Below are positions 1,285 to 48,389 of a stretch of 64,000 nt of DNA, piece after piece. A program made the translations under genes and the position numbers. Every line of letters begins with the position of its first letter. Within the stretch, counting starts at the first letter, position 1. The stretch lies in sequence record NZ_CP064874.1. One strand, written 5' to 3'. Origin of the DNA: a plasmid. Under the pieces are notes generated by a model that was not told the origin of the DNA, ran no database searches, and saw nothing but the letters and a program-made list of their open reading frames with translations.

Positions 1285-1331
1285 GTGAATGTGACATTCA
1301 CTACCCTAGAATCAGTCGGCGCTCATGTCAA
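1285..1331 (-). promoter_or_regulatory. promoter plus palindromic operator, copy 1
   Basis: Read on the minus strand: TTGACA (1326-1331), 17 nt, TAGGGT (1303-1308), then GTGAATGTCACATTCAC (1285-1301), then GAGGGGG and ATG at 1267. Confidence 0.5.
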
Positions 1332-1410
1332 GACGTCGTCGTCGTCGTCGTCGCTGTGGTGGTGGCGCCAAGCAGCCGCCACGCTGCGGACGGAGGTCGG
1401 GTAGTACCGG

Positions 1411-2541
1411 GTGCGAGTGGTCTGGCCGGATAGCGTTGGGATCGTGCCGAAGTCGTTGTCGATGAATGAGATCCGAGCCCGCGCTGCGCAGTTCACCCGT
1501 GACTGGCAGGACGAGCCCGGCGACGAGCGACAGCAAGCGCAGTCCTTCGTCCGGGATCTGCTCGGCGTGTACGGGATAACCCAGACCCGCGCGGCGTTCT
1601 ACGAGAAGCGTGTCAAGCGCTCGTCGACCGGCTCGCGCGGATACATCGACGCGCTGATCCCTGGTCTCGCGCTGATCGAAATGAAGTCCGCCGGCAAGGA
1701 TCTCGTCGCGGCTGAGCAGCAGGCGCTCGACTACATTGACGACCTTCCTGACCCGGAGGTTCCTCGGTGGGTAATCACGAGCGACTTCCGCCGGTTCCGT
1801 CTGCTCGATCTCCACGCTGAGAGCGAGGGTGTGCAGGAGTTCGCCCTGACCCAGATGCGGGATCGCGCTGACGTGCTCGCCTTCCTCGCCGGGTACGGTG
1901 AGCGCACCTTCGGATCGAAGGCGCAGGAGTCTGCGTCGATCAAAGCGGCAAAGCTGATGGCGTCCCTCTACGAGGCCCTCGAGGGGTCTGGGTACGACGA
2001 TCACGAGGCGTCGGTGTTCCTGGTGCGCACCTTGTTCGCCCTCTACGCCGATGACGCCGGAGTGTGGGATCGCGATCTGTTCCTCGAGTTCCTCGAGACC
2101 CGCACCGCGACGGATGGTTCCGACCTCGGGCCTCAGCTGTCGTTGCTGTACCAGGTCATGGGACGTGAGCCGTCTCGTCGGCAGTCAAACCTCGACGAGC
2201 TAATCTCGCGATTCCCCTACGTCAACGGTGGAGTCTTCGAGGAATCGGTGTCGATCCCGTCGTTCGACGCAGGCATGCGTGACCGGCTGATCGCGGCTGC
2301 AATGTTCAACTGGTCGGCGATCTCGCCGGCCATCTTCGGCAGCCTCTTCCAGGCCGTCAAAGACAAGACCGCTCGGCGTGAGCTCGGCGAGCACTACACC
2401 ACCGAGACCAACATCATGAAGGTCATCGGCCCGATGTTCCTCGATGAGCTGCGGCAGCGGTTCACGGACGGGTACCACGACACCGCCAAGCTCAAGAAGC
2501 TGCGTGCGGACATGGGGCTGATGCGATTCCTTGATCCAGCG
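1411..2541 (+). pseudogene. MmeI-family type IIG restriction-modification enzyme, N-terminal fragment (endonuclease domain, helical spacer, start of MTase motif I), disrupted by insertion
   Basis: MNEIRARAAQFTRDWQDEPGDERQQAQSFVRDLLGVYGI...LIEMKSAGKDL...DFRRFRL matches the MmeI N-terminus motif for motif. Homology stops after ...FLDPA (codon gcg at 2539-2541); the residues after that in the ORF are insertion-derived. The true start is probably the Met at 1462. Confidence 0.85.
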
Positions 2542-2542
2542 T

Positions 2543-2575
2543 TTATGCGCAAGTCGGGTGTCTCACGAGACAGCG
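2543..2575. repeat. left terminal inverted repeat of the 31-kb insertion
   Basis: ttatgcgcaagtcgggtgtctcacgagacagcg aligns at roughly 70% with the reverse complement of 33848..33880 (shared TTATG.G.A.G.TCGG.T..GTGTCTCA..CGAC). Confidence 0.45.
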
Positions 2576-2890
2576 GAAGATCGGCCATCAACTCGGGTGG
2601 GCTGGGGGCTCACGATAGCGGCGGTAAGCCATCCGGCTTCTACGACAATTCGGGAGTAGCGCGTTCAGCAGCAGCTGCTGCGACCGCGCGTGCAGTTACG
2701 GCGGTTGCCAGCAGGTGACTCTTGGCCGCCCGATCGGGTTGCCACGAATTGTCTGCAGCCACCGTACCCAGCTCTTCCAACACAACTGCGAGGGCGGCCT
2801 TGACATCATCCTCGCCGATCGCGAGTGGCGCCTGCGCAAGCTGCGTGAGTTGCGTCGGGTTGAACACCTGTGCCCCGAGCGCTTTCGTCA

Positions 2891-3145
2891 CTAGGGCGTG
2901 TTGATCAAGAGGTTCAGGCTCAGGATCGGCGAGTCTCGATGGTGTGACGCGTCAGGAGATCTCGGATGAGGTGTGGGCTGTTCTGGAGCCGCTGATGCCG
3001 GTGCCGGTTGGCAGGTCGCGGCCGTGGACGGATCATCGTCTCGCGGTCGAGGGCATGGCCTGGAAGTACCGCACGGGGGCGCCCTGGCGGGATGTGCCGG
3101 AGCGGTTCGGGAAGTGGAACTCGATCTACAAGCGGTTCGCGCGCG
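2891..3145 (+). mobile_element. IS5-family (IS427/IS1031-like) fragment: left IR plus N-terminal part of OrfA
   Basis: IR CTAGGGCGTGTTGATCAAGAGG at 2891-2912. ORF 2944.. encodes MTRQEISDEVWAVLEPLMPVPVGRSRPWTDHRLAVEGMAWKYRTGAPWRDVPERFGKWNSIYKRFAR, a DUF4096-type OrfA N-terminus. Homology is lost after about 3140. Confidence 0.6.
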
Positions 3146-3163
3146 CCCTACAAGCTGTCCGAG

Positions 3164-6282: not shown

Positions 6283-6496
6283 GAGTAACCACAGCGCTCG
6301 ATCCGTCGTTCAGCCGCGTTCCTTTAGCCCACTGGCGCGCAAGAGGCCCGGAATTTCCACTGTCATCTCGCAGGACATCGGTGACACTTCTCGCGGTCTT
6401 GGTGGTAACACTTCGGCCGGTCGTATTGGTAAGTGACCCCTTCTGAGCCTGTTGATTCTCGTGTTCGTCTCGCCATCACGCAGTGGCCCGATAACG

Positions 6497-7954
6497 GGCT
6501 CTTCGGACATTCGGTGGGGGTCATGGGGTGAGTCCGCCGGCGGCGAGGAGCATGCGGAGCCGGTAGTTGTCGCGGTTGCGGAAGCCGCGGGCGAGGCGGC
6601 GGTGCAGCTCGATGATCCCGTTCACGGCCTCAGTGCCGCCGTTCGATGATCGTCCGGTCGTGAAGTAGGCCAGGAACGCGGCTCGCCAGCGGCGGAGGGT
6701 GCGGCCGAGGCGGGCGATCTCGGGGATCGGGCAGGTGTGGAATGTGTCGACGACCTTCTCCGCGATCTGGCGGCCCTCGGCGAGGTCCTTCTGGTGGTAG
6801 GCGGAACGCAGTTGCTGGGCGCACTGCCATGCGACGAACACCTCGTCGTGCGCGGGGTCGGCCTCGATCGCTGCCGCGAGCCTGGTCCGCTGCTTCTCGG
6901 TGAGGTTCTCGGCGCCGGCGCGGAGGATGGTCTGGATCCCGTAGAGCGGGTCGCCGGTCCGACCGCGATGCCCGAGGGTGTCCTGCTGGACGCGGCGGCG
7001 GACCTCGTCGACGGCGGCGGTGCCGAGCTTGACGACGTGGAATGCGTCCAGCACGGCCGTGGCGTCTTCGAGCTGGTCGTCGATCGCGGTCTTGTAGCCG
7101 GCGAACGGGTCAAGAGCCGCGACTTTCACGTTCTGCCGGAACGCTTCGCCGCGTTCGGCGAGCCAGGACGCGTAGGCCTTCCCGGAGCGGCCCGGCACCA
7201 GGTCGAGCAGCCTGGCCCGCGTCTTCCCGTCCGCGTCGCGGCTCAGATCGACCATCCCGGTAAGCTCCTTCGGACCGCGCTTGCGGGGGTCGACGTGATG
7301 CCAGATGTGCTCATCGACACCGAGCGTGGTGACGTTCTCGAATCGGGACTCGTCGGCCGCGAGCCGCTCCAACTCAGGCTCGACAGCGCGCCACACCGTC
7401 TTCCACGACGTGCCGAGCTGACGGGCGATACCGTGCACGGTGGCGTGCTCGCGGCGCAGCTGCCCGATCGCCCAGCCGACGGCGCGCGTGGTGATCGACC
7501 CGCGCCGGGCGACCAGACCCGGGAGCTGCTCCACGAACGTCCGCCGCGCGCATCCCACCTCGTCGCACCGCCAGACCCGCTGCCGCCATACGATCCGCAC
7601 CCGCGTCGTCGCGGGCACATCATGAAGCACCCGTCGACGGCGTCCGCGGCCGGTCGCGACGACCCCACACGAGGGGCAGCCGGTCGGCGCCGCTGGCGTC
7701 GAGACCGTCACCACCAGCAGCCCGTCGCGACGGTCGACGCGCTCGACATGGACATCGGGAAGACCCAGCAGAACGTCGCAGCGGGAACACGGATCAGCGG
7801 CAGAGCGCGCGGAAGCGCACCCCGAAGTAGGGTGAAGCACGTCGAGGTCCTCGTGAAGATCAGACAGTTAGCGCTACTGATCCTCGGGGACCTCGACCCC
7901 TACCCGCCGAACCCCACCCGGCAAGCCTCACCCCCACCGAATGTCCGAAGAGCC
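6497..7954 (-). mobile_element. ISL3-family insertion sequence (copy 1), 1458 bp, 8-bp TSD CGATAACG
   Basis: Terminal IRs GGCTCTTCGGACATTCGGTGGGGGT (6497..) and its reverse complement (..7954). Flanking direct repeats cgataacg at 6489-6496 and 7955-7962. Confidence 0.85.
6521..7840 (-). CDS. ISL3-family transposase
   Basis: 439 aa with an N-terminal zinc finger (CPSCG) and a typical ISL3 core (…LGVDEHIWHH…). The start is a GTG. Confidence 0.85.
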   Translation of the reverse strand: MLHPTSGCASARSAADPCSRCDVLLGLPDVHVERVDRRDGLLVVTVSTPAAPTGCPSCGVVATGRGRRRRVLHDVPATTRVRIVWRQRVWRCDEVGCARRTFVEQLPGLVARRGSITTRAVGWAIGQLRREHATVHGIARQLGTSWKTVWRAVEPELERLAADESRFENVTTLGVDEHIWHHVDPRKRGPKELTGMVDLSRDADGKTRARLLDLVPGRSGKAYASWLAERGEAFRQNVKVAALDPFAGYKTAIDDQLEDATAVLDAFHVVKLGTAAVDEVRRRVQQDTLGHRGRTGDPLYGIQTILRAGAENLTEKQRTRLAAAIEADPAHDEVFVAWQCAQQLRSAYHQKDLAEGRQIAEKVVDTFHTCPIPEIARLGRTLRRWRAAFLAYFTTGRSSNGGTEAVNGIIELHRRLARGFRNRDNYRLRMLLAAGGLTP

Positions 7955-8259
7955 CGATAACGCGCCGCGCGGGGCGGTGAGCACGTTCTGTGTCGAGCAC
8001 GGGATCTCCCGCAAGACGTTCTACGCGATCCGTAAGCGCGTCGCCGAGGAAGGGCCTGCCGCGGCGCTCGAGCCGAGGTCGCGTCGTCCGAAGTCGAGCC
8101 CGTCGAAGCTGAGCGACGAGGTCAAACGGCAGGCAATCGGTGTGCCGGCGGCGTTGGAGCAGTCCGGGCTGGACCACGGTCCGATCAGCGTGCACGACAG
8201 GATGCGCACGCTGAGGATGGACCCTGTGCCGTCGACGGCGTCGCTGGCGCGGATCTCCT

Positions 8260-26696: not shown

Positions 26697-26719
26697 CGGT
26701 ACGCCCCGTCCACAGCCGG

Positions 26720-27664: not shown

Positions 27665-27709
27665 GCCTCATGCGGTAGTGGGTGGTGCCTCGACTCTCCG
27701 GTGTTGGAA

Positions 27710-33880: not shown

Positions 33881-33885
33881 CGGCG

Positions 33886-35924: not shown

Positions 35925-35969
35925 GTCACGCGGTCGTCGTCGGCACGGGGCTGTCGGTGCGCCGGCATA

Positions 35970-36251: not shown

Positions 36252-36409
36252 TCGCGTGCCACCGGGGCAAGAGAAAACGGCACCCGGCCGGAGCGTGGAA
36301 ATTGTCACATTCACCAACGATCCAACTGAGGAGGAGCCATCGCCCCGAGGGGCGGAAGGGAACCTGCTCAACAGCCGGGTGCCGCGCCTTAGTGTACCGC
36401 GCGGGGCGG

Positions 36410-36966: not shown

Positions 36967-37208
36967 GAGGGTGTTCCTTCCTTGCTTCTGGGGGAGGAGC
37001 GGCGTAGCCGCCGAGCGGATTTGGGGAGGGGTTCGTTGCGAGGCAGCTTCGCGAGGCGCCAGTCATCGCGGACGGCGATCGCGGCGGCGAAACAGGTCAT
37101 GAGCGTGGGGTGGTGGTGGTTGGCGCATCCGGCGCGGGTCTGACATCCGAGGTCGTAGCCCTCGGGGCTGCCGTGGATGATCTGTCGAGCGACCTCGTCG
37201 GAAAGCAT
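36963..37208 (-). CDS. hypothetical protein
   Basis: 81 aa, Cys/His-rich. Confidence 0.35.
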   Translation of the reverse strand: MLSDEVARQIIHGSPEGYDLGCQTRAGCANHHHPTLMTCFAAAIAVRDDWRLAKLPRNEPLPKSARRLRRSSPRSKEGTPS

Positions 37209-37218
37209 GGCCTGGTCC

Positions 37219-37629
37219 TCAGTCGAAGCTGGCGTCGATCAGGAGGTCGAGCGCGTCGGCGAGCTCACGGAGCCTGTAGCTGCGTCGACCGGCGATGACG
37301 TGGCCGAACAGGTTGACGAAGTGCAGCTCGCGAGTGGTGGTGTCGGCGACGGCGACGGTATGGACGTCGTGAGCGTCGATGTACTGCCAGCTGATGATGT
37401 AGTTGCGGCCGGCGACGTGCGCTTGAGCCCAGCGGAAAAGCAGTGCACCGAGCGGACCATCTTCGGATGCGCGGGTCGAGTAGGGGTCGGCTGGCACGAT
37501 CGCGTCGACGGAATGGAAGCCGACAGAGGAGCGGGAGATCTCGTAGCTGTCCAGCGGGATGTCGAGGAAGAGATCGTTGTAACGGGTGCCGGTGTCATCG
37601 GTGATGACGATGTTGTTCAGAGTGCTCAT
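37219..37629 (-). CDS. hypothetical protein
   Basis: Start taken at MSTLNNIVITDDTG (37629). Confidence 0.45.
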   Translation of the reverse strand: MSTLNNIVITDDTGTRYNDLFLDIPLDSYEISRSSVGFHSVDAIVPADPYSTRASEDGPLGALLFRWAQAHVAGRNYIISWQYIDAHDVHTVAVADTTTRELHFVNLFGHVIAGRRSYRLRELADALDLLIDASFD

Positions 37630-37655
37630 CGTTGTCAGTCCTCTCGGGTGGGGGG

Positions 37656-38378
37656 TCATGCGGCGCAGCTGGCGAGCTGCGCGCGGAGCGTGGAGTAGTC
37701 GGCCGGGTTGACCGTCAGCTGGTAGGCGGTGAGGACGTCGACGAAGCGCGCAGCGTAGGCGCATCCGTAGTCCGCGTTCGGGGGCATCCATTCGGAGGGG
37801 CCGCGATCGCTCTTCGACTGGTTGGTGCTGCCGTCCGTGGCCTGCAGATTGAGAGGATCGTTGGCGAAGCGCTCACGCTGGGCCTCGTCCCATTCGTCGG
37901 CGCCCTGACGCCACCCCCACGCGAGCGGCACGACATGGTCGATCTGCACGAGCTCACTCGTGCCCTGGCCGCGCTCGAAGGCGATCGTGAGCCCGGTGTA
38001 AGGGTCGTGAAGCGTTCCGGTGAGGACGACGCAGTCGTGTGTGCCGGGCTTGGTGGTGATGTTCTCGAGCGCGGCCGCGAGTGCGTCGTTGCGCTGGTCA
38101 CAGCCGTTGCGGTCGATGTCGGCCCAGCGTTGCCCGAACGCGTCACGGTCGTAGCTGTCCTGGTCGGCTGCATCGGCCACGACGAGCTGCTCGAGCTCAT
38201 CGAGGGCTGCGGCGGCGTCCGCGGAGATCTCTGCGGTAGGCACAGGCACAGGCGCGGGCGCGGTGTCGGTGAGGTCGCTGACGCCGGAGGGCTGGCTGGT
38301 GATCGCGATCGCGCCAGCGAGCAGGGCGACGACAACAGCGCCGGCGGCGGAGGCGAGGCGTGTGGTTCGGCGGTTCAT
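37656..38378 (-). CDS. secreted HNH/DUF1524-type (GmrSD C-terminal-like) nuclease
   Basis: Signal peptide MNRRTTRLASAAGAVVVALLAGAIAITSQ. His-Me finger region …CDQRNDALAAAL…IDHVVPLAWGW…NDPLNLQATDGSTNQSKSDRGPSEW. Confidence 0.65.
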   Translation of the reverse strand: MNRRTTRLASAAGAVVVALLAGAIAITSQPSGVSDLTDTAPAPVPVPTAEISADAAAALDELEQLVVADAADQDSYDRDAFGQRWADIDRNGCDQRNDALAAALENITTKPGTHDCVVLTGTLHDPYTGLTIAFERGQGTSELVQIDHVVPLAWGWRQGADEWDEAQRERFANDPLNLQATDGSTNQSKSDRGPSEWMPPNADYGCAYAARFVDVLTAYQLTVNPADYSTLRAQLASCAA

Positions 38379-38389
38379 GAGTGGTCCGT

Positions 38390-38593
38390 TCAGAGGAAGA
38401 GGGCGGCGCCGAGTACGACGGCCGCGGCGACCGCGGCGACGCTGAGGAGAAGGGTGACGAGGAACTTGAGGCTGCGCCGTACCGTGCGCTCTGCGCGGCG
38501 TGCAGTGTCGACGGTGACGAGGATGCCGACGAGGCCGCCGCTGCCCAGCAGAAGGGGAGCGAAGTCGCGGGCGGTAGACAGGGCGAGATCCAT
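38390..38593 (-). CDS. small membrane protein (two predicted TM helices)
   Basis: MDLALSTARDFAPLLLGSGGLVGILVTV…LLLSVAAVAAAVVLGAALFL. An RBS GGAGGAA precedes the start. Confidence 0.35.
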   Translation of the reverse strand: MDLALSTARDFAPLLLGSGGLVGILVTVDTARRAERTVRRSLKFLVTLLLSVAAVAAAVVLGAALFL

Positions 38594-38617
38594 GGGTTCC
38601 TCCGGGGTATTCGTCTA

Positions 38618-38692
38618 GGGGTATAGGTCGCAGTTCGGGGTGTTCGCGGACAGAGATTCTCGGGGGCGGGCATAGGCGAGCCCGCCCCCGAG
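38618..38692 (-). promoter_or_regulatory. conserved intergenic module, copy 1 (terminator-like hairpin plus TGTCCGCGAACA-N12-GGCCTATACCC)
   Basis: Minus-strand read: hairpin CTCGGGGGCGGGC…GCCCGCCCCCGAG, then TCTGTCCGCGAACAC, 12 nt, CCTATACCCC, 14 nt, GGAGGAA, ATG. Confidence 0.5.
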
Positions 38693-38697
38693 GGCTG

Positions 38698-39573
38698 TTA
38701 CGCGGCCGCGGCCTGGTCGTCGGCGCCGAGCATGGCGTCGGCGATCGCGTTGACGGCACGGAGGACGTTGCCGGCGACGCTGCGGATGAGGTCGACGTCA
38801 CCGCCGGCCCATCCTGCGACGTACCCGATCGACCACGCGGACGTGTCGAGTCCGAGGAGGCCACCGGCGCAGTACGCGACCGACTCGGCTTCGGTCTCGA
38901 TCACTCCGCGGTGCTCGCGGGTGCTGCCCTCGTCGAAGTGCAGAAGTGCGTGACCGATCTCGTGCAGGAGGGTCTTGACGCGCATGGCCGGTGCCATCTT
39001 GCTGTCGACCCGGATCTGTCGGGCCTGGCCATCGGTGTACCCGTTGAGCCCGTCCTGTGCGATGTCCTCGAGCGCGACATCCCAGCCCTGCGCGGTGATG
39101 AAGTCGGCGAGCTGGTCGAAGAGGCCTGCGACGTCGTCGCCCTCGAGGTAGATGGCCGGCTGCTCGGGGAGCGGCTCGCCATCGGTGTCGCGGACGTCGA
39201 ACACGGAGAGCACCGGGTAGATCACTCGACTGCTGGTGGACTCTTCTCCGGTGGCCTCGTCGACCTCGACGATCCGCTTGGTGGAGTAGCCGAAGATCTT
39301 GATCGACTTCGCGCCCTTGACGACGTGACGGCCGAGGGTCTCCCACTGGCGGTAGCCGAGGCAGTGGGTGCCGCCCTGCGCGAGGATGAGCATCTGGTTG
39401 GAGAACGAGCGCCGGCGGACGATGCGCGCGAAGCGCAGCCAGGCCTTCCAGTTCTCGCTCTCGGCCAGCGTGGCGACCTGTGCGGTGAGCTGCTCGTGGA
39501 GCGCCTCGGCCTGTGCGCGGCGCTCTTCCGGGGTGCGGCGGGTGGTGCCGCTGCGGCGGGTCTTGGTGGTCAT
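38698..39573 (-). CDS. ArdC-like anti-restriction protein (N-terminal ssDNA-binding domain plus C-terminal zincin HExxH)
   Basis: …NQMLILAQGGTHCLGYRQWETLGRHVVKGAKSIKIFGY… (ArdC-N) and LHEIGHALLHF metalloprotease motif. Confidence 0.75.
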   Translation of the reverse strand: MTTKTRRSGTTRRTPEERRAQAEALHEQLTAQVATLAESENWKAWLRFARIVRRRSFSNQMLILAQGGTHCLGYRQWETLGRHVVKGAKSIKIFGYSTKRIVEVDEATGEESTSSRVIYPVLSVFDVRDTDGEPLPEQPAIYLEGDDVAGLFDQLADFITAQGWDVALEDIAQDGLNGYTDGQARQIRVDSKMAPAMRVKTLLHEIGHALLHFDEGSTREHRGVIETEAESVAYCAGGLLGLDTSAWSIGYVAGWAGGDVDLIRSVAGNVLRAVNAIADAMLGADDQAAAA

Positions 39574-39600: not shown

Positions 39601-39647
39601 GTGAATGTGACATTCACTAGTATGAGGCATTCGATATGCCCCGTCAA
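39601..39647 (-). promoter_or_regulatory. promoter plus palindromic operator, copy 2 (upstream of the ArdC-like gene)
   Basis: TTGACG, 17 nt, CATACT, then TAGTGAATGTCACATTCACTA, GGGAGG, ATG. Confidence 0.5.
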
Positions 39648-39678: not shown

Positions 39679-40632
39679 TCAGCCCGGAAGGATGTCGGTG
39701 GCGGCTTTGGGGTACGCGGTGCGCGGCAGCCCGATCGGCAGCCGGCGACGCTGGGAGCTGCTGCCAAGAGGGAAGGCGTATCGGAAGTTCCCCGGATGCC
39801 TGATCTTCGTGACATCGAGCGCGGCGAGCGCCTCGCGCAGCCAGGCTCGCGGGTCTTGCCCTGCGCGGCGGATGGGGGCGCCGAGCGAGACCAGGTGTCG
39901 CTCGGCGGCGTCGGCGCCTCGCTCCTGTCCTCTTACCTTGGACAGAGATCTCTCGGAGAGCACGAGGCCGCGGCGGGGGAGGTAGTTCAGGGTGCGTGCG
40001 GTGCTGCGGCCGAGGGCGATCGCGTTGACGCTTTGGTATATCCCGCCGATGTGGCCGGGCGAGGTCTGTTCGATGCGCTCGATTGTGGTGCCGTTGTCGA
40101 GGGTCTCGGTGATCTGTCGGCGCCGTGGCAAGGGGTCGGCGAAAGAGACGACGCCGCGGATGCCCCGGTCGTAGGCGTGGCGGAAAGCGCGTGCGAGGAA
40201 CCAGGATTCGGCGTTCGCGGGTGTGTCGGTGAGTACGAATCGGCCGAGCTCGATGCTCTGTTCGTAGGGCTCGAGCGTGCCGAAGACGGAGCTGAGGACT
40301 CCTCTGCTCATCGGGGTGGAGAAGGTGGCGACGCCGACCAGTGCCATCTCGTCGACCATGGCGCCGTTGATGGGGAAGCGGTCGTCGCGGGTGAGCAGCC
40401 CGATCGAGAAGCGTGCTGCGGGGAAGGATGCTGCGTAGTGCTCGTCGATGACGAATGCTCGCGCGGCGGCTTCCGTGATCGGGGCCACCTGGTATAGACG
40501 GGGGTCGAACCCGCCTTCGGAGATGTGGCGCCACGAATGGGCGCCGCGAGACCAACGCTGGCAGTAGTCGCTCGCGGGGGAGGAGGGCGGCTCGGCCGGC
40601 ATGAGTACCGGCCGAGCGTTCAGGGTGGGCAT
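39679..40632 (-). CDS. hypothetical protein
   Basis: Start taken at MPTLNARPVLMPAEPP (40632). 318 aa. Confidence 0.5.
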   Translation of the reverse strand: MPTLNARPVLMPAEPPSSPASDYCQRWSRGAHSWRHISEGGFDPRLYQVAPITEAAARAFVIDEHYAASFPAARFSIGLLTRDDRFPINGAMVDEMALVGVATFSTPMSRGVLSSVFGTLEPYEQSIELGRFVLTDTPANAESWFLARAFRHAYDRGIRGVVSFADPLPRRRQITETLDNGTTIERIEQTSPGHIGGIYQSVNAIALGRSTARTLNYLPRRGLVLSERSLSKVRGQERGADAAERHLVSLGAPIRRAGQDPRAWLREALAALDVTKIRHPGNFRYAFPLGSSSQRRRLPIGLPRTAYPKAATDILPG

Positions 40633-40636
40633 GAGG

Positions 40637-40960
40637 TCAGATCTGCGCAGCGATCGCGCGGAGCTGCTCGTCGACGTCGGGGGCGACGTCGATCCACTCA
40701 CCGGTCCTGGGGTGCAGCCCGACGATGAGCGCGGTGCTGAACAGCAGTGCGCTGCGGCCGTGCTCGGTCAGGTAGAGCGAGGCGAGCAGGTTCGGCTCTG
40801 TGACCTTGAGACCGGCTTCCTCGTCGACGAGCAGTGCGTGGCCGTTGGTCAGGCGGAGCTCTGCGACCCAGCCGCCGATCTCGCGCTGGTAGTCGGGCAG
40901 CTCGTCGATGCGGATGGTGTCGATCTCGCCAGCGGGGGTGATCTTGATGGCCGTTGTCAT
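40637..40960 (-). CDS. hypothetical protein
   Basis: 107 aa. An RBS GGAGGA precedes the start. Confidence 0.45.
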   Translation of the reverse strand: MTTAIKITPAGEIDTIRIDELPDYQREIGGWVAELRLTNGHALLVDEEAGLKVTEPNLLASLYLTEHGRSALLFSTALIVGLHPRTGEWIDVAPDVDEQLRAIAAQI

Positions 40961-40986: not shown

Positions 40987-41034
40987 GTGAATGTGACATT
41001 CACTGATGGTACGCGGGCGACGTACCCTCGTCAA
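40987..41034 (-). promoter_or_regulatory. promoter plus palindromic operator, copy 3
   Basis: TTGACG, 17 nt, TACCAT, c, AGTGAATGTCACATTCACTA, GGAGGA, ATG (40960). Confidence 0.5.
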
Positions 41035-41044: not shown

Positions 41045-42449
41045 CTAGAGGAGTGCTGAGTCGACGCGGCAGCACTTCTGCTGCGCATAGGGGCGTTCAC
41101 TCAGCGGCATCCAACCCGGTTCCCTTCGCCGAATGAGCCGGGGATGCCCGGCTTCCCCCTCCGTGGTCATGTGGGGGCCGGCGTTGGTCCAGCAGTTCTG
41201 CGCGCGCGTCTCGCACCACAGCGCGAGCCGCGCTTCGCGGGGGAGGCAGGCACGATGTGTCCACCAGGCGCGCTTCTCGCCGTAGGGTCCGAACTGGTGG
41301 CCCTCGCTGTGCGCGATCGCGTCGTGGACGGCGCGGAAGACGTCGTTGGCGAGCATCGGCGCCCGCTCGCCCGTGGGCAGGGTGACCGTAACGCTGCGAG
41401 CCATCGGATGATCCGGCGGAAGGGCCCCCTCGCTGTGCTGCGAGACCTCGGTGCGGAAGTAGAACAGGTGCTTGTTCTCGCGGAGATCGGCCAGCATCGC
41501 GGCAGAGTCGGCGTAGGGTTGCTCGGTCTCGCCGTGCCAGGGCTCGAAGGTGTAGCCGGCTTCTGTGAGCATGTCCCACTGAGCGCCGATGTGCTGCCGC
41601 AGTGATCGGTAGGAGCGGGCGACCTGCGGGTGCGCGGGCTCGTGCGGTGCGGCCGCGTATGCCCTCGCTGCAGCGATGTCGTCGAGCTCGGTCAGTCGGG
41701 GGATCGGCGTGCGCTGTGGGAAACCGTGCGCATCGGCGTACCGCTCTCTGAGCGACTGGATCTCCTTGATCGGCTGGTGGTGACGGTAGCTGTCGTTGCC
41801 GGGCACGAAGGCAACGTGCGCTCGAGCGAAGGTGGGTTCTGTTCCGAGACGGGCGGCGATCGCGTTCACGGCGGATGCCGGCAGCGGATACTCGGCGGGT
41901 TCCGCGATCTCGAGCTTGCCGTCATAGAGCCTGCCTCCCGGTGCGCCGGCGGCGCGGAGAATGTCGAGGGTCTCCTGGACCTGCTGCTGCGAGCCGGTGC
42001 CGGCGGCGAAGCTGTAGACCCGGTCGGGGCCGTCAGCGTCGAAGTACCCGGCCATGATGCTGTCCTGCTCATACCGCCCCGCCAGCTCGCCGGCCCAGTC
42101 GGTGACCTGCTCGAAGCTGTCCGCGTGGACGATGTAGGCGCCTGCAGGCTCCGACGTGCCCTCCCAGAGCCCGTCCGCGTGCTGCAGCTCGGAGATCTCG
42201 ATCCCGTGACGTTCCGCGGCCGCGCGCAGGGTGTCTTCGTACTCGATCCACTCGTCGGTGTCCCAATAGCTGGGGCGCGAGCTCATCCGCATCAGCTCGC
42301 CCGAGACCGGCCGGAACGGGGTCGCGCCGATGAAGGCCTCAAGCTGCTTCTCGGCGTTCCGCTCGCGCTTCTCGGCGCGGCGACGCCGCTGCCCTTCGGC
42401 CGTCGACGACGGGCACCGCCGCCCTCCGTGGTCGATGTCGTCGCACATG
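41045..42449 (-). CDS. hypothetical protein (468 aa, Cys-rich N-terminus)
   Basis: Start taken at MCDDIDHGGRRCPSS (42449). The ORF-track extension to 42580 translates the conserved intergenic module and was rejected. Confidence 0.55.
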
Positions 42450-42468
42450 GCCTCTCCCGTTCGTCTGC

Positions 42469-42536
42469 TGGGTATAGGCCGGGGTTGGGGGTGTTCGCGG
42501 ACAGAAATCGGGGCCCCGCCGGTCGGCAGGGCCCCG
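42469..42536 (-). promoter_or_regulatory. conserved intergenic module, copy 2
   Basis: Hairpin CGGGGCCCTGCCGACCGGCGGGGCCCCG, TCTGTCCGCGAACAC, 12 nt, CCTATACCCA, 14 nt, GAGG, ATG. Confidence 0.5.
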
Positions 42537-42683
42537 ATGAGGGCGGCATGGTCAAACGTCAGCCGTTGAGCTCCTCCCACACCTGGTAGGCGCGGTGAAA
42601 CTCCGGGCTGTCATCGTCGCCGTCACGCACGAGCTGGTCGAGGTACTCGTCGAGCTCAGCCTGGGAGAGCTGGCGGGGATCCT

Positions 42684-42965
42684 TCATCCTTCGGCTCCCG
42701 CCTCGGCAGGCGGGCAACTGCACCGTGCACGCGGCCGCGAACCGTTCCAGTTCCCGACGTAGAACAGCGCGCACGGCCATTCGTGCTCGCCGCGGCGCCG
42801 CAGCCTGGGGACGGTCACCGTGAGCTCGCTGCCCAGGCTCAGCGCGTCCATGATGTCGTCCGCGATGTAGCCGGCCTCCTCGTCCGCCTCGTCCGTGTGC
42901 TGCTGGATCGTGCGCACGATCGTTGCGCGCACGTCCAGCGTGACGGTCGGCGATGCCTCGTTCAT
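42684..42965 (-). CDS. hypothetical protein
   Basis: Start taken at MNEASPTVTLDV (42965). Confidence 0.3.
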   Translation of the reverse strand: MNEASPTVTLDVRATIVRTIQQHTDEADEEAGYIADDIMDALSLGSELTVTVPRLRRRGEHEWPCALFYVGNWNGSRPRARCSCPPAEAGAEG

Positions 42966-43318
42966 CGGGTGTCCTCGTCGGGGTCCACACGCTGGATCGC
43001 CTCGTGCAGGCGGGCCAGTCGGTCCTCTCGCACGATGATGACGAAGACCACCGCAATGCCGGCAAGAGGCAGGAGCACGATCGGGGCGGGGACCACGATC
43101 ACCACGCCGACAGCGAGCAGCACGATCGGCAGGATCACCCTCAGCGTTGCGCGGCGGTGCTGACCGAGCTCGTTCCTGATGCGATCCTTGATGACCCCGT
43201 CCTGCTGTGCGAAGGCGGTGGCCGGGTCCGAGGAACGCAACATGCTCCGGATTGCGCGAGTTGTCCACTCGCTCAGCGTGCGCTGATGCCGATCCCTACT
43301 ACTCTCACGCCCGGTCAT
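42962..43318 (-). CDS. hypothetical membrane protein
   Basis: TM stretch ILPIVLLAVGVVIVVPAPIVLLPLAGIAVVFVIIV. Confidence 0.4.
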   Translation of the reverse strand: MTGRESSRDRHQRTLSEWTTRAIRSMLRSSDPATAFAQQDGVIKDRIRNELGQHRRATLRVILPIVLLAVGVVIVVPAPIVLLPLAGIAVVFVIIVREDRLARLHEAIQRVDPDEDTR

Positions 43319-43806
43319 CGCGTGTACTCGCTCGGGGACGGGATCGGCAGGTCAGGATCGCGGATCTCGTACTGCCGGTCCTCCACGTAGGCCGCGTACT
43401 CGTCTGCGAAGTCGTATGCCTCGGCCTCGCTGTGCCCTTCCTGGCGCGCATGATCGAACGCGCTCCGCCACGGCTGACCGGTCGAATCGAGCGGCGGGTA
43501 CAGGCGGTCGATCAGCACCTGATTCGCAGCGTCGTCGATCCTTCCGCGAGCCTCGGCGTCGGCGATCGCTCTCGCAGTCGCATGTGTGCCGTCTCGCAGC
43601 CGCGACAGATCACTCGAAGAGGGCACCACCCGCGCATAGGTGCAGTCGTCCCACCGGCAGTAGGTGGTCGTCTCCTCTGGCGTGAGCGGGCGGGGAGTGA
43701 CGCTCACCAGCGCGGCGCCGCGTCCGCACACGGGGCATCGTCGAGCCTCCGCGCTGCGGACACCAACGCCGCGGCGATGGGCTGTGTTGTTCCGGCGCTC
43801 GGTCAT
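43315..43806 (-). CDS. hypothetical protein with zinc ribbon
   Basis: CPVCG…C…C motifs. 4-bp overlaps with both neighbours. Confidence 0.45.
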   Translation of the reverse strand: MTERRNNTAHRRGVGVRSAEARRCPVCGRGAALVSVTPRPLTPEETTTYCRWDDCTYARVVPSSSDLSRLRDGTHATARAIADAEARGRIDDAANQVLIDRLYPPLDSTGQPWRSAFDHARQEGHSEAEAYDFADEYAAYVEDRQYEIRDPDLPIPSPSEYTR

Positions 43807-44024
43807 CGCTCGCTCCCGCTCTCGTTGGGCGGGTTGGTGATGATGAACCCTGTGCCGGCGTCGGGCTGGTCCTGGCGCAGTCCGACGATCTCGGTGTCGG
43901 TCGCGTCGGTGTCGTTGAGGGTCTGAGCGAGCAGGTCGGCGTACTCGTCCGCGGTGAGTGCCTGGACCGCGGCGGCGTCGGTGACGTCGACGGGCTTGCC
44001 GTTGACGTGGAAGATGCGGGTCAT
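43803..44024 (-). CDS. hypothetical protein
   Basis: Start taken at MTRIFHVNGKPVDV (44024). Confidence 0.35.
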   Translation of the reverse strand: MTRIFHVNGKPVDVTDAAAVQALTADEYADLLAQTLNDTDATDTEIVGLRQDQPDAGTGFIITNPPNESGSER

Positions 44025-44071
44025 GGGGTTCTCTCCTGCTGATGCGTCGTGGTGTCCATCCTCGTCGTGGG

Positions 44072-44371
44072 TCAGCGGAGGTCGAGCTCGACGCTGTCGG
44101 CCTCGAGGTCGGGGATGGTCTGGGCAGGGTGGCTGAACGTGACAGCCGGGCCGTGGACGATTACACGGTCGCCGCGGTGGGTCGTCAGCCGGAGCATCTC
44201 GGCGAGGATCCCGTTGGCGTGGACGTTGTATGAGCCGGCGTCGGTCTCGACGCGGAACCCTACGCGCGCCTGACGGTCGGTGAGTCGGCGGACGAGGGTG
44301 AGCGGTGTGCGGACGGTTCCTGCGATGGTGACCGCGGTGCCCGTGGGGGCTGCGGCCTGGGTGATGGTCAT
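44072..44371 (-). CDS. hypothetical protein
   Basis: Start MTITQAAAP is preceded by GAGGAGA and by operator copy 4. Confidence 0.4.
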   Translation of the reverse strand: MTITQAAAPTGTAVTIAGTVRTPLTLVRRLTDRQARVGFRVETDAGSYNVHANGILAEMLRLTTHRGDRVIVHGPAVTFSHPAQTIPDLEADSVELDLR

Positions 44372-44383: not shown

Positions 44384-44431
44384 CAATCAAATAGTGAATG
44401 TGACATTCACTGACTATACGCCTGCGAGTCT
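44384..44431 (-). promoter_or_regulatory. promoter plus palindromic operator, copy 4
   Basis: TATAGT, c, AGTGAATGTCACATTCACTA, then GAGGAGA and ATG. The -35 is weak (TTCCCC). Confidence 0.45.
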
Positions 44432-44535: not shown

Positions 44536-44778
44536 TTAGTCGTCGATGCTGCTGTCGGGTTCGTCACACGCGCCACTGTTGATGGCATCGACGCCGGCTT
44601 TCGTGAGCACCCAGCCGGGTTCGACCCATGAGTAGCGCTCGATCAGACCGCGCCTGCGGAGAGACTGGATGGTGCCACCGGGAATCCCCAGGCCTGTCGT
44701 ATCGAGGTAGCTGGCGCCACCGGAGGGGGACCGGCCATCGGCGATCATCCGCATGGTGACCCGCTGCGACCAGTTCAA
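44536..44778 (-). CDS. hypothetical protein
   Basis: 80-aa ORF; the start is uncertain. Confidence 0.3.
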   Translation of the reverse strand: MNWSQRVTMRMIADGRSPSGGASYLDTTGLGIPGGTIQSLRRRGLIERYSWVEPGWVLTKAGVDAINSGACDEPDSSIDD

Positions 44779-44814
44779 CGGCGGGGCCTTCTTGCGGCGG
44801 TTGAGCTGTCGATG

Positions 44815-46092
44815 TCAGGCGGAACGTGCGAGCTGCGCAGCGGAGGCGGTCGGCTGCAGCGCGAGGAGCCGCTGCGCCTTCGCTGCTTCGATCTCGCCCG
44901 GCAGCTCTCCCTTACGAGCGCCGGAGCGGCCGTAGAGAAGGACTTTCACGCCGGTCTTGGAGGCCTGCGCTCGGTCGGCGATCTCGAGGATGGTCATGCC
45001 GGAGGCCATCAGTTGTCGGACGTGCCGGCGAACGGGGTCAGCGGGCACGCGCGGGGCCTGCGGGGCGATGCCGGCTTCCCGCCGCCGGCGTCGCTCTTCG
45101 GTCAGCGATGCGTCGGCGCAGGAGATCTCGGCAGGGCATTGATCTCGGTCCTTGCAGCCGAGCTGGTAGCCGTAGGCGGTCCCGTGGTGTTCGGCCGGGA
45201 TGCTCTGTTCCTTCCGGTTTGCCATCCACTGCCGGTGATACTCGCGGCCCGCCTCGATGCACTCCGGTCGATCGCAGCCACGCGCCCGGCAGGCGTTGGT
45301 GCCGTGCGGCTGCAGCTGCCGCGGTCGGGAGACGCGAGGGGCCCGCGGGGTCTGCGGCCGCGGCATCCGCGGCCTGGCCGGCGGTGCCGGGCGATCATGC
45401 TTCGCGAGCTCGTCGACTGCTGCCTGATGCCTGGCGGTGGCGTCCTGCAGAGCACGCTCGATCACGCCGCCGACCGATAGGCCGCTTCCGGCGGCGATGG
45501 TGGCCGTCTTGAGCGTCTCGACCGCGGAACGCAGCTGGACGCGCAGATCCCGGTGGTCGCTGCGCCACTGTGCGAGCTCGTCGACGTGACGATCCAGCGC
45601 TGCTTCGTAGCCGTCGACCGTCTCCGCGAACGTGCTGGCACGCTCGACGGGGAGCGTCTCGGCCGCGAGGCGGGCCTTGTCGATCCACTGATAGCCAGGA
45701 TGCGTGCGCGTCCTCAGCAACGTCGGTCGCGGGGTCGCGATCCTCAGCGGCGCCGTCTTCGGCGGGCGGGCGGGCCGTGCTGTCGGTGTGCGCTTCGAGG
45801 CCTGCTTGGGTCGGCGGGGCTGCGTGGCTTCGGCCGCGGCCCGGCGCTCTTCTCGAGCGGCGATCTTGTCACGCTGCCGGGACTGGTCGCGTGCGGCTGC
45901 GTCGCGCTCGAGGATCTCCGCAAGGGGCGTGCCGGCGTCGATGAGCTTCGCGAAGGAGAAGTCGCCGGCATAGCGGGTGTGGATGGTGCGGCAGGGGATG
46001 AGCGCGGGGCACGCTGCAGTGCGGCATCCGCGGCGGTACCCGTCCGGGGTGCCGTGCGGGAAGCTGTCGTCGAGCAGGTCGAGGGTGGACAT
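44815..46092 (-). CDS. hypothetical protein with C-terminal HTH
   Basis: Start taken at MSTLDLLDDSFPHGTPDGYRRGCRTAACP (46092). The C-terminus …GMTILEIADRAQASKTGVKVLLYG… is HTH-like. 425 aa. Confidence 0.5.
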   Translation of the reverse strand: MSTLDLLDDSFPHGTPDGYRRGCRTAACPALIPCRTIHTRYAGDFSFAKLIDAGTPLAEILERDAAARDQSRQRDKIAAREERRAAAEATQPRRPKQASKRTPTARPARPPKTAPLRIATPRPTLLRTRTHPGYQWIDKARLAAETLPVERASTFAETVDGYEAALDRHVDELAQWRSDHRDLRVQLRSAVETLKTATIAAGSGLSVGGVIERALQDATARHQAAVDELAKHDRPAPPARPRMPRPQTPRAPRVSRPRQLQPHGTNACRARGCDRPECIEAGREYHRQWMANRKEQSIPAEHHGTAYGYQLGCKDRDQCPAEISCADASLTEERRRRREAGIAPQAPRVPADPVRRHVRQLMASGMTILEIADRAQASKTGVKVLLYGRSGARKGELPGEIEAAKAQRLLALQPTASAAQLARSA

Positions 46093-46103
46093 CACGTTCG
46101 GCC

Positions 46104-46565
46104 TCAGTAGCGCAGGAGCTTCGCGGTGACGAGCGACAACAGCGCCGCCCGTTGCGGAGAGTTGAGGCGGGAGAAGTGCGCGCCCAGGGTGTCCAGTGCT
46201 GCGGTGAACTCGGCAGGCAGCCCGTCGAGATCCCGCTTGACGCGCCGCTCGTTCGCGTCGCGCTGCGCCTCGGCCTGATCGGTCACACGCCACTCGTCGG
46301 TGGCCGCGCGGTCGGCATAGGCGCCCGTGATCCGTGGCGCATGCAGCCCGCGGGTGTAGAGCGAGTTCGGCTCGTCGATCGGGCGAGTGATCGTGATGAT
46401 CGCGCCGACCGGCGCCGACGTGTACGGCTTGTACGAGCCGAGCTCCTTGTCGGAGATCTCGCCGTCGACGAGCGTGCGGTACCAGTGCGCGAGCTTGCCA
46501 TTGCCCGCCTGCCTGCGCCCGACGTAGACGACATCCTCAGTGACGGTCTCTGCCGATTCGCTCAT
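46104..46565 (-). CDS. hypothetical protein
   Basis: Start MSESAETVTEDVV follows GAGGAGA and operator copy 5. Confidence 0.45.
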   Translation of the reverse strand: MSESAETVTEDVVYVGRRQAGNGKLAHWYRTLVDGEISDKELGSYKPYTSAPVGAIITITRPIDEPNSLYTRGLHAPRITGAYADRAATDEWRVTDQAEAQRDANERRVKRDLDGLPAEFTAALDTLGAHFSRLNSPQRAALLSLVTAKLLRY

Positions 46566-46594: not shown

Positions 46595-46642
46595 GTGAAT
46601 GTGACATTCACTGATACTAGAGAGGTTGCAGCGTTCTCGCAA
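46595..46642 (-). promoter_or_regulatory. promoter plus palindromic operator, copy 5
   Basis: TTGCGA, 17 nt, TAGTAT, c, AGTGAATGTCACATTCACTA, GAGGAGA, ATG. Confidence 0.5.
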
Positions 46643-46826
46643 CCGTCGTCGTCGTCGTCGCCGAAAGTCGAGAGCGCTGCCTGTCGGCGGGCACGGTGCG
46701 CATGGGCTCATCACGAGGCGCTTCGATCTCGAAGCCGCACGCGCCGCAGCTGTGCAGTCCGACGCCATCGACGTCGTCGGATGGGATGTACATGGTGGTG
46801 GGCTCTTCGCACATCAGGCAGCGCAT
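46617..46826 (-). CDS. small zinc-ribbon protein
   Basis: MRCLMCEEPTTMYIPSDDVDGVGLHSCGACGF…. Confidence 0.4.
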   Translation of the reverse strand: MRCLMCEEPTTMYIPSDDVDGVGLHSCGACGFEIEAPRDEPMRTVPADRQRSRLSATTTTTVARTLQPL

Positions 46827-46846
46827 GGTGATCTCCGATCGTGTGG

Positions 46847-47310
46847 TCAGGCGGTAGCCGCCGGGGTGATCTGCTCGACGGTGGCTGAGTAGCCGCGGTG
46901 GGAACCCCAGGCGGCGGCGATGCGGTCGGCGACGTCGCGGTCTTCGCCGAGGTAGGGGCGGTATCGCTTGCCTCGCGGGTCGGTGATGACGACCTGGACG
47001 ACGCCGGAGGGCTCGCGCACGGTGACTCGGGCAGCAGGGATTGGGTGGGCGTGGACGCGGCCGGCGATGATGAAGGTCGGGTACAGATCGCGTGCGAGCT
47101 CGGGGGAGCGGAACACGTCGTGGACCCATGCCGTGATGGCGATCGCGCCGGCAGGACTGAACCCGATGAGGCGGGCGGGGAGCTGCTCGAGCCCGGAGCG
47201 GACGAAGTAGTGCTCGTCGACGAGTATCGGCGCCGGCGGATGCAGAGACCGCTCGTCGTGGGCGGGGTAGATCGTCAGGCTGGTGCGGCTGTTCATGAGG
47301 CGCTCGTTCA
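46847..47310 (-). CDS. hypothetical protein
   Basis: Start MNERLMNSRTSLTIYPAHDE. ATGA overlap with the upstream gene. Confidence 0.45.
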
Positions 47311-48078
47311 TGCGGTGCGGCGGATGCCTACGGCGATGATGTGCGCCTTGGTGGGACGGGAGTAGAAGCCGAAGCTGTCGTCGTCGTCCGAGGCGGAGAC
47401 GGTTGCGGTGAATGCGACGACGTCGCCGCGCGTCGCGGAGGAGATCTCGGAGGGCTTGGTGCCCCACACGCGCCAGCCTTCGCCCTGGACGAGGATCTTG
47501 ACGGTGATGCCCCACTGGGTGTCGGTGGTCTTGGTTGCGAGGATCTCACCCTGGATGAGGGTGCGTCCCGTGGGGACGGGGCGGCGCGCTGCCAGCTCGC
47601 GCTCGAGCTGCTCGAGCAGCTCGTGGGCAGTGCGGACCTCATCGGCGTCGAGGGTGCCGGTGGAGTCCTCGAGCGAGTCGAGGAGGTAGCCGATCTTCTC
47701 GCGCAGCGGGTTGCCCTCCCGGATGCTCAGATGAGCTTCGGTGAGCTGGTCGCGCAGGCCGGGGTGCTCGGCCTCGAAGGCAGCGCGACGGGCGGTGATC
47801 GCGCGCGTCGTGTCGATGTGCTCGGCGTGCGCCTTCGCGTGGGCGCGGGCGGTGGCGCGAGCGCTGCTGACGAGCCGGCTGCGAGTGCCGGTGCCGTGGC
47901 AGTCGAAGCAGATCGGGCGACCGTGGCCATCGGTGAAGTGGGTGGGCCCGGTGTACAGGCCGGTGCCGATGCACTTGCCGCAGGTGTCGGTGATCCGCTC
48001 GGAGCCCTTGCGGCCGGGGAAGGGGTCGACGTAGAAGTCGTGCCAGTCTGCCGGTGCGGTGGTGTCGATGCTGTCCAT
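47308..48078 (-). CDS. hypothetical protein with CxxC…CxxC zinc-binding N-terminus
   Basis: MDSIDTTAPADWHDFYVDPFPGRKGSERITDTCGKCIGTG…CFDCHGTG…. First gene of a long minus-strand operon. Confidence 0.5.
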   Translation of the reverse strand: MDSIDTTAPADWHDFYVDPFPGRKGSERITDTCGKCIGTGLYTGPTHFTDGHGRPICFDCHGTGTRSRLVSSARATARAHAKAHAEHIDTTRAITARRAAFEAEHPGLRDQLTEAHLSIREGNPLREKIGYLLDSLEDSTGTLDADEVRTAHELLEQLERELAARRPVPTGRTLIQGEILATKTTDTQWGITVKILVQGEGWRVWGTKPSEISSATRGDVVAFTATVSASDDDDSFGFYSRPTKAHIIAVGIRRTA

Positions 48079-48099
48079 GGGATCCTCCGATGCGTCTGT

Positions 48100-48179
48100 G
48101 GGTATAGGCCGCGGATCGTTCTCTTCGCGGACATGAAGGGGAAGGTGCGGGGGCGGCTATGTCACGGAGCCGCCCCCGC
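48100..48179 (-). promoter_or_regulatory. conserved intergenic module, copy 4 (with terminator-like hairpin)
   Basis: Hairpin GCGGGGGCGGCTCCGTGACATAGCCGCCCCCGC, CATGTCCGCGAAGAG, 12 nt, CCTATACCCA, 10 nt, GGAGG, ATG (48078). Confidence 0.5.
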
Positions 48180-48343
48180 GGCGGCGACCTGGTTGGGAGG
48201 ACGGCGGTCGCCGTGAGGGACGGAGCGAAGAGCGCGGCGAGCGCTCGTCAGGCTGCGGTGTGGCGCCTGTCCCTGGGAGGGGAACGGCGTTGCGCGGTTC
48301 CCCTGGCTGTGGGTCTGTGGGGTCTCCCTCTACTCAGTTAGTA

Positions 48344-48389
48344 GTGAATGTGACATTCACAGAGTAGGGGGTTTCTGCGTGCGGGTCAA
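48344..48389 (-). promoter_or_regulatory. promoter plus palindromic operator, copy 6 (about 260 nt upstream of the 48078 start)
   Basis: TTGACC, 17 nt, TACTCT, GTGAATGTCACATTCACTA. It is separated from the gene by the hairpin and module in 48100..48179. Confidence 0.5.

Follow-up and report, generated by a model that had tools for sequence, protein, structure and literature searches.

The 64,000 nucleotide (nt) stretch of plasmid DNA analysed here (sequence record NZ_CP064874.1, referred to below as the window) contains six exact copies of a 17-bp palindrome, GTGAATGTGACATTCAC. The sites hold a fixed position relative to promoter and start codon, are conserved in related plasmids and are restricted to one class of genes. 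From a comparison of sequences we consider the palindrome most likely to be an operator that overlaps the promoters of an establishment and anti-restriction regulon and would be bound by a dimeric repressor. We class the system as a plasmid operator regulon that is specific to its lineage and of an already known kind; that the operator is shared with Tn7-like transposons was unexpected.

The window was searched with the exact pattern GTGAATGTNACATTCAC and then with up to three mismatches allowed, using dinucleotide-preserving shuffles as the control. The exact search returned six copies, where the shuffles give an expectation of 0.00, and this bears out the number given in an original prediction for this DNA. 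The copies, numbered c1 to c6 and all on the minus strand, lie at 1285-1301, 39601-39617, 40987-41003, 44394-44410, 46595-46611 and 48344-48360. Five of the predicted positions were correct, the sixth, c4, having been misplaced at 44384. All six copies have the same orientation, with the central base G on the plus strand and C on the coding (minus) strand, where each of them reads GTGAATGTCACATTCAC. Allowing three mismatches added only one site in the window, GAAATTGTCACATTCAC at 36298-36314 on the plus strand, which corresponds to a degenerate half-site predicted at about 36296. It has one half-site intact and an orientation opposite to that of the exact copies. This copy is not at a promoter but in the convergent gap between two operon ends, beside a terminator-like hairpin (36281-36295), and may be a relic or a roadblock.

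When 100 nt of flanking sequence on each side of the six copies was aligned, the only conserved features were (C)A-palindrome-TAC, a -10-like hexamer and a GAGG ribosome binding site before the ATG. The original prediction had named one case that would speak against it, in which the motif is the terminal repeat of an insertion sequence (IS) or a miniature inverted-repeat transposable element (MITE) with common flanks. The flanks in the window are unrelated, and copies of one IS or MITE are excluded because the flanks are unalignable beyond the palindrome and TAC; the copies also share one orientation and are tied to the -10 hexamer and start codon.

Promoter hexamers were read from the aligned sequence. 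In all six copies the palindrome begins 0-2 nt downstream of the -10-like hexamer, and in five of them a TTGnnn hexamer lies 17 nt further upstream. On the minus strand, the predicted promoter of c1 (1302-1331) consists of TTGACA (1326-1331), a 17-nt spacer and TAGGGT (1303-1308), followed after 1 nt by the palindrome. Those of c2 (39618-39647; TTGACG-17-CATACT, 1 nt to the palindrome) and c3 (41004-41034; TTGACG-17-TACCAT, 2 nt) have the same arrangement, as do those of c5, with TTGCGA (46637-46642), a 17-nt spacer, TAGTAT (46614-46619) and 2 nt to the palindrome, and c6, with TTGACC (48384-48389), a 17-nt spacer, TACTCT (48361-48366) and 0 nt. The predicted c4 promoter has a good -10, TATAGT, 2 nt from the palindrome, and no TTGAC-like -35. 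The distance from palindrome to ATG is 17, 27, 26, 22 and 29 nt for c1 to c5, each with a GAGG-type ribosome binding site. At c6 there is no adjacent open reading frame, and 265 nt separate the palindrome from the nearest downstream start codon. The predicted order of -35/-10, palindrome, GGAGG and ATG needs correcting at c4, which lacks a -35, and at c6, which lacks an adjacent reading frame. If transcription begins 6-8 nt after the -10, it would start inside the palindrome. A single-strand promoter of the Frpo/ssi type was also considered and rejected, as those are long imperfect hairpins of approximately 100 nt or more in which single-stranded DNA rebuilds the -35/-10, whereas the palindrome is just 17 bp and the -35 and -10 lie outside it.

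The window between 36000 and 48400 is 86% identical to pYJNG, the 148.6-kb plasmid of Microbacterium sp. YJN-G (L104 in our numbering of loci). In pYJNG the site is found at each of the six orthologous promoters while the flanks diverge; the c6 orthologue (L104:30709) has one mismatch. The c1 orthologues are at L104:14650 and in L020, L038, L065, L088, L089 and L116-118; those of c2 at L104:21617 and in L011, L029, L053, L098, L116 and L119-121; those of c3 at L104:23002 and in L022, L079, L097 and L098; and those of c4 at L104:26108 and in L079, L082, L094 and L097. This conservation at orthologous promoters in relatives strengthens the case for the predicted dimeric-repressor operator on core promoters, which is the best explanation of the sites. 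The total for pYJNG is 23 sites with two or fewer mismatches and a further 2 with three. With the exception of the degenerate copy, which is letter-for-letter the same in pYJNG (L104:18298), all are on one strand, and each precedes a co-oriented small-gene operon, with roughly 20-30 nt between site and ATG. No site occurs in the 50-kb segment of pYJNG that carries the type IV secretion system (T4SS), two Tad-pilus loci, parA and MobF, so that the "element-wide" regulon first proposed was an overstatement. Centromere-operators of the KorB/ParB-parS type were rejected on similar grounds, with no site in the segment of pYJNG that has parA and no ParB domain in the window proteins.

A set of 56 non-redundant plasmid sites was used to compare promoter classes and substitutions. 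Class A sites follow an ordinary TTGnnn-17-TAnnnT promoter, as in the window. Class B sites belong to a 45-nt block, cAATGTCGGAGGCCnCCCGTAGCCT plus palindrome, without a canonical TTGACA-like -35 and with an AATGTC core repeated 27 nt upstream. The palindrome is the only element common to the two classes, and because it follows two unrelated promoter types it appears to be an independent regulatory module at a fixed position. The class B promoters could instead suggest a positive promoter element, read by a plasmid sigma factor or activator or setting the initial transcribed sequence, since their common block and repeated core stand in place of the -35. This is quite improbable, as class A promoters with an ordinary -35/-10 at 17-nt spacing carry the palindrome all the same, the position downstream of the -10 is the classical one for a repressor, and no sigma factor or activator gene was found among the scanned proteins of the window and of the site regions of pYJNG.

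Several observations weigh against an operator for a dimeric repressor. Substitutions in the 56 sites are one-sided, with 21 in the promoter-proximal half (positions 1, 3, 6 and 7) and 2 in the distal half, which counts against it because a purely symmetric operator does not predict such a pattern; orthologous sites, too, can differ from one another. In the plasmid sites the sense strand invariably has C as the central base. A strict scan for the sigma-70 consensus, which is of the E. coli type, passes only two of the six promoters in the window, c2 and c3, and c4 lacks a -35. We infer the "leading region" status of the genes from gene content and co-orientation only. Two further points concern the winged-helix family described below as a candidate repressor: homology searches found no homologue of it in the window or pYJNG, and three of its clades share the recognition helix but lack the palindrome nearby, as in the P0022-type and P0024-type clades, where none is recognisable and the helix (IVHPLI) is unchanged.

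We read the one-sidedness as a strong distal half-site paired with a proximal half-site that would double as the transcription start region. It could also indicate that the element acts in RNA, the invariant distal half GUCACAUUCACUA providing a common 5' leader for an RNA-binding protein or antisense RNA, or tuning translation or stability, with the DNA palindrome being secondary. An invariant transcribed half beside a proximal half that varies even between orthologues is consistent with this, as are the single orientation of all plasmid copies relative to the gene and the short, narrow spacing to the ribosome binding site (17-32 nt, mode 24). We nevertheless find an RNA element distinctly unlikely. 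Most copies are perfect palindromes, which would be needless for an RNA leader, and if the -10 assignments are right the transcript would start inside the palindrome and contain no hairpin. The full hairpin is in any case weak (-6.6 kcal/mol), the leaders fold no better than shuffles, no Rfam family was matched, and the Tn7-like elements have the site in either orientation with respect to the genes beside it. A terminator or repetitive extragenic palindromic (REP)-like hairpin was rejected as well: the weak stem is A/U-rich, T-rich tails are found only at c4 and c5, and the copies are positioned at operon starts.

For the repressor operator, then, the proposed mechanism is that a dimer would bind the 17-bp palindrome covering the predicted transcription start and, once bound, would stop RNA polymerase opening or leaving the promoter. 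The regulon would comprise co-oriented small-gene operons (ArdC-like, Mom-like, HNH/GmrSD_C, DUF3560, DUF3846 and many unknowns), with the conjugation machinery outside it. These genes would be silent in an established host and would fire briefly when the plasmid enters a repressor-free cell, a logic like that of other plasmids. The transcription starts, the repression and the burst on entry are all steps that we infer.

The genes downstream of the sites in the window agree with the cargo of DUF3560 protein, ArdC and unknown gene sets named in the original prediction, as confirmed by Pfam searches, and all are on the minus strand. c1 lies in a divergent gap, facing on the plus strand the 5' half of an MmeI-like methyltransferase gene, and its operon (3-1267) encodes a 171 amino acid (aa) unknown protein (752-1267) and a DUF3560 protein (3-755, running off the window; Pfam E 4e-13), continuing in relatives with 73-aa and 77-aa genes. 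The c2 operon (36410-39573), in the same gene order as in pYJNG, begins with an ArdC-like gene that has the N-terminal domain and an M78 peptidase domain (38698-39573; Pfam), followed by a 67-aa membrane-like protein, a GmrSD_C/HNH nuclease-like protein (37656-38378) and four small unknowns. The c3 operon (39679-40960) consists of DUF3846 (40637-40960, Pfam E 1e-9) and Mom-like (39679-40632, Pfam E 2e-17) genes. The c4 operon (41045-44371) encodes a 99-aa protein with a faint SSB/OB match, five small unknowns (73, 163, 93, 93 and 42 aa) and a 467-aa protein, and the c5 operon (44536-46565) encodes proteins of 153, 426 and 80 aa, the last of which we call w80. The transcription unit of c6 (46847-48343) has a 265-nt leader (48079-48343) before two unknown proteins of 256 and 154 aa. 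Taken over its whole range, the site-bearing block contains the domains ArdC, Mom-like, DUF3560, DUF3846, DUF4192, DUF6573 and DUF1643, with faint DpnD/PcfM and Lar matches.

Two side observations concern the sequence around these promoters. The c6 leader is strongly structured (fold z-score -4.8, with a 12-bp G+C stem at approximately 48150-48185) and at least 90% conserved in pYJNG, L075 and L120, relatives that are too alike for covariation; neither the leader nor the window matched a family in Rfam. Runs of (ACG)n/(GAC)n lie directly upstream of the -35 of c1 (1334-1345) and c5 (46644-46658) on the minus strand, and at the same place in the relatives L020, L089, L012, L094 and L082. They could be the coding tail of an upstream reading frame or an upstream promoter element.

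Among 72,556 plasmids, pYJNG is the only one with many copies of the motif. In a scan for the exact 17-mer in contigs of one genome per species, the matches listed are concentrated in Microbacterium and are multi-copy on plasmid-like contigs, while single matches in unrelated taxa are close to our chance estimate and some of them fall in coding repeats. Viral contigs gave 0 matches, and a phage origin was rejected on this basis. No paper containing the 17-mer was found among those searched, and papers naming strain YJN-G appear to deal with unrelated subjects such as iprodione degradation. Two window proteins recur as identical copies, one of them, from the c1 operon, in 700 sample blocks and the other in 498, and those relatives carry the same sites. 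Proteins of the plasmid are unchanged in hundreds of unrelated sample blocks (L116-L121), including marine (TARA) metagenomes. This wide occurrence may reflect a very widespread Microbacterium plasmid, or laboratory or reagent contamination.

The identical palindrome also occurs on Microbacterium chromosomes. At least 11 loci, falling into two sequence families, have it in an A+T-rich gap between a gene for a protein of 105-107 aa and a tnsA-like gene. The small gene encodes a winged-helix protein and is divergent from tnsA (L027, L086, L128 and eight further loci), and a TnsB-like transposase gene comes next after tnsA. These elements were classed as Tn7-like from matches to the Tn7_TnsA-like_N and rve domains and from an end common to three loci that begins TGTAGG, has repeated TGGCGG motifs and lies approximately 4.4 kb beyond the winged-helix gene. 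Between the two families the small proteins are 62-64% identical and TnsA is 67% identical, and the flanks have diverged without any change to the 17-mer. In all, three clades, with proteins only 62-77% identical, have the identical palindrome between the winged-helix gene and tnsA. Among the further clades sampled, the P0018-type has the exact palindrome once more and the P0029-type has it with one mismatch, and in the P0021-type it reads ATGACTGTCACAATCAT, where G1>A and C17>T form a symmetric pair of changes. Among the matches listed, every chromosomal Microbacterium site adjoins a winged-helix gene and in nearly every case has tnsA as its other neighbour. A winged-helix member with 60% identity is found on the plasmid-type contig L109, where the element at the promoters has diverged and is poorly symmetric.

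Other features of these loci were also recorded. The tnsA-side gap holds repeated GTCAC...ATAC motifs, which may be transposase sites. Genes of the cyclic oligonucleotide-based antiphage signaling system (CBASS) type are located beside the winged-helix gene in both clades scanned for neighbours: L027 encodes a SMODS-type cyclase together with an E1/E2 fusion (Cap2-like), and at the other locus two IS-type transposase genes stand between the winged-helix gene and a SMODS-domain gene. The neighbours at L128-130 are TatD, QueC-like and KAP NTPase genes.

At one locus (L028:3640-3860) the plasmid and transposon kinds of element meet: in this single case a Tn7-like end (TGTAGGTTCTCGGCGATGATGGCGGATTC...) abuts pYJNG-like plasmid DNA 38-41 nt upstream of a class B palindrome. 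Targeted Tn7-like insertion beside the palindrome was rejected, as the palindrome is missing at that distance from the chromosomal copies. A related alternative is that the sites are scars of recombination or mobility (MITE or IS ends, integron-like cassette boundaries, or a transposon target) with no role in transcription. The L028 junction would fit this, together with breakpoints between relatives near sites, among them a switch of homology in the window approximately 39 nt upstream of c6, and with the look of class B units as repeated cassettes. We give scars next to no weight, since the six window flanks are unrelated with neither paired ends nor target duplications, the distance to the -10 and start codon is fixed, no integrase is associated with the sites, and chromosomal insertions of the same Tn7-like element are without a palindrome at the corresponding distance.

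The original prediction reported no obvious cognate repressor gene, and none was recognised in the window or in pYJNG; Pfam-type scans of the window proteins found no recognised DNA-binding domain. Scans of 30 proteins from the site-bearing regions of pYJNG with Pfam likewise gave no DNA-binding domain, only faint DpnD/PcfM and Lar matches plus DUF4192 and DUF6573. The best lead, a candidate for a protein that recognises the palindrome, is the transposon-linked winged-helix family, of which neither the window nor pYJNG encodes a member. The family, to which P0005 of M. paulum belongs, forms 37 clusters, confined to Microbacterium, and falls below the Pfam gathering cut-offs (Rrf2 20.6 bits against 30; MarR_2 12.8 against 27). 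Its AlphaFold2 model, with a predicted local distance difference test (pLDDT) score of 81, has the layout H-H-H-H-wing-H with a dimerisation helix. The top Foldseek matches were MftR, ZitR, Rv0880, AntR, HlyU and SmtB (E approximately 3e-4 to MftR, ZitR and Rv0880), and the model resembles the MarR/ArsR/PadR dimeric repressors.

Two other proteins, w80 and the pYJNG protein P236, are weaker candidates than the transposon family. w80 (44536-44778, minus strand), the last gene of the c5 operon, is the only DNA-binding candidate within the window, predicted to be winged-helix-like. Its low-confidence AlphaFold2 model (pLDDT 67) has a helix-helix-wing layout with weak Foldseek matches to MarR-type regulators, and it is conserved in all class A relatives. 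Against w80 as the repressor, homologues of 70-83% identity occur on contigs without any palindrome, and w80 shows no homology to the winged-helix proteins of the transposons. The window at 44778-44815 lacks approximately 630 bp of pYJNG (L104:26492-27135), in which are encoded two small Cys-rich proteins and the first half (N-terminal) of a protein of 146 aa, and the remaining 80-aa form is the common form in public data. The helix-turn-helix (HTH) proteins of pYJNG are a GntR regulator and three proteins beside a large primase gene, and have no homologues in the window. The GntR gene is in a site-preceded operon but was rejected, as the window and three of the six related plasmids lack it. 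P236 (WP_193599363.1), a 236-aa HTH protein, has a site immediately in front of its gene in six plasmids, but some 24 other operons of pYJNG have one too, and it gave no match to solved structures. A distant winged-helix reading frame (L092:5960-6325), which comes second in a site-preceded operon of the plasmid contig NPDC076768, was rejected as its family is a single rare cluster.

The site might instead be bound by a chromosomal Microbacterium host regulator that plasmids and transposons recruited independently. The motif is confined to Microbacterium among the matches listed and yet is found on two unrelated kinds of mobile element, and neither pYJNG nor the window has a recognisable cognate regulator. 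A host regulator is very improbable all the same, since no site was located at a core chromosomal gene among those matches.

Finding the identical operator in a transposase promoter suggests cross-talk between two kinds of mobile element, which would be new if real. We put forward, as an unlikely but specific possibility, that the plasmid regulon and the Tn7-like elements are coupled through one repressor-operator pair, because the L028 locus shows both kinds of element meeting. The winged-helix protein would shut its own transposase promoter and would also silence incoming plasmid genes (exclusion), be titrated by the approximately 25 operators of the plasmid so that transposition is triggered, or both. 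If true, repressor silencing of incoming establishment and anti-restriction genes would be a transcriptional form of plasmid exclusion, and titration would switch transposition on exactly when a plasmid target arrives. The plasmid biology of Microbacterium and related Actinomycetota is almost unstudied, and the site offers a precise regulatory code for plasmids of a family met very often in public data, as judged from the identical window proteins in 700 and 498 sample blocks. It would join approximately 25 promoters, with some 60 genes that are mostly unknown, into a single co-regulated set of candidates for anti-defence and establishment functions.

The sites are set in a mosaic Microbacterium plasmid. 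Window segments 3-2542 and 33883-36500 match positions 80515-83044 and 83041-85652 of pYJNG, where they are contiguous, and the 31.3-kb insertion between them (2542-33883) interrupts an MmeI-like type IIL methyltransferase/restriction gene, the halves of which lie at approximately 1411-2542 and 33883-35592. The gene is intact in relatives, and approximately 4 bp of pYJNG sequence is present at both junctions. The predicted splitting of a once-contiguous backbone is upheld by this arrangement. The "conjugative element" of the original prediction is a plasmid, which need not be an integrative and conjugative element. In the relative L118 a different insertion, with serine recombinase, helicase, MZB and PLD genes, occupies the same MmeI-like gene, which may be an insertion hot spot. 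Within the 31-kb insertion, two perfectly complementary inverted copies of 960 bp (22375-23334 and 26713-27672), IS5-like by similarity, enclose 3.4 kb with a gene for an 851-aa MMPL-type transporter, and together look like a composite transposon. An ISL3 element with 37-bp inverted ends (6485-7966) lies within a unit bounded by 44-bp inverted repeats (2891 and 8329).

To the right of approximately 48400 the window is again mosaic. First comes a segment resembling plasmid B of Microbacterium sp. No. 7, and then catabolic and MobF segments sharing 99.7-100% identity with plasmids of Microbacterium, Glutamicibacter and Rhodococcus. Just upstream of c6 (48415-48467) is a different motif set of three GGACATTTC repeats and a palindrome, ATGTCCATATGGACAT, which occurs again with one mismatch at 50123-50138. 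This set belongs to the segment that a plasmid B relative contributed and has the AATGTC core in common with the main palindrome and the class B -35 box.

Several known systems use operators in a comparable way. In the IncP-1 plasmids RK2/RP4 the KorA operators (OA) and KorB operators (OB) are short palindromes at many backbone promoters, overlapping or next to the core promoter, that provide coordinated silencing. Here too one short palindrome is found at many promoters, where it would overlap or adjoin the predicted core promoter, but the sequence is unrelated, the host belongs to a different phylum, there is no KorA, KorB or ParB homologue, and the transfer genes are outside the regulon. 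In the IncN and IncW plasmids pKM101 and R388, repressors of the ArdK/ArdR type control leading-region anti-restriction genes. Repeated operators would likewise keep anti-restriction and establishment genes (here ArdC-like and Mom-like) off except after entry, although no homologue of those repressors was found and the regulon is much larger, with approximately 25 promoters in pYJNG.

MarR/ArsR/PadR-type homodimers bind 16-20-bp palindromes overlapping the -10 and +1, and the best candidate binder here has a predicted winged-helix fold, while differing in that its family is tiny, below threshold by sequence, found only in Microbacterium and without an evident ligand-binding or metal site. The palindrome itself may resemble Fur/Zur or ArsR boxes (TGAA...TTCA). 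CvkR of the type V-K CRISPR-associated transposon is a MerR-type transposon-encoded repressor. The Tn7-like elements described here similarly have a small regulator gene beside the transposition genes and a putative operator in the common promoter region, but the fold is another one, there is no CRISPR module, the cargo is of the CBASS type in two clades, and the operator recurs approximately 25 times on a plasmid. Finally, Streptomyces plasmids have GntR-type repressors of the Kor/TraR group, such as KorA of pIJ101 and KorSA of pSAM2. An actinobacterial plasmid repressor would here too bind palindromes at several promoters, whereas the only GntR gene in pYJNG is not conserved in the motif-bearing plasmids, and transfer is of the T4SS/MobF type rather than the TraB type.

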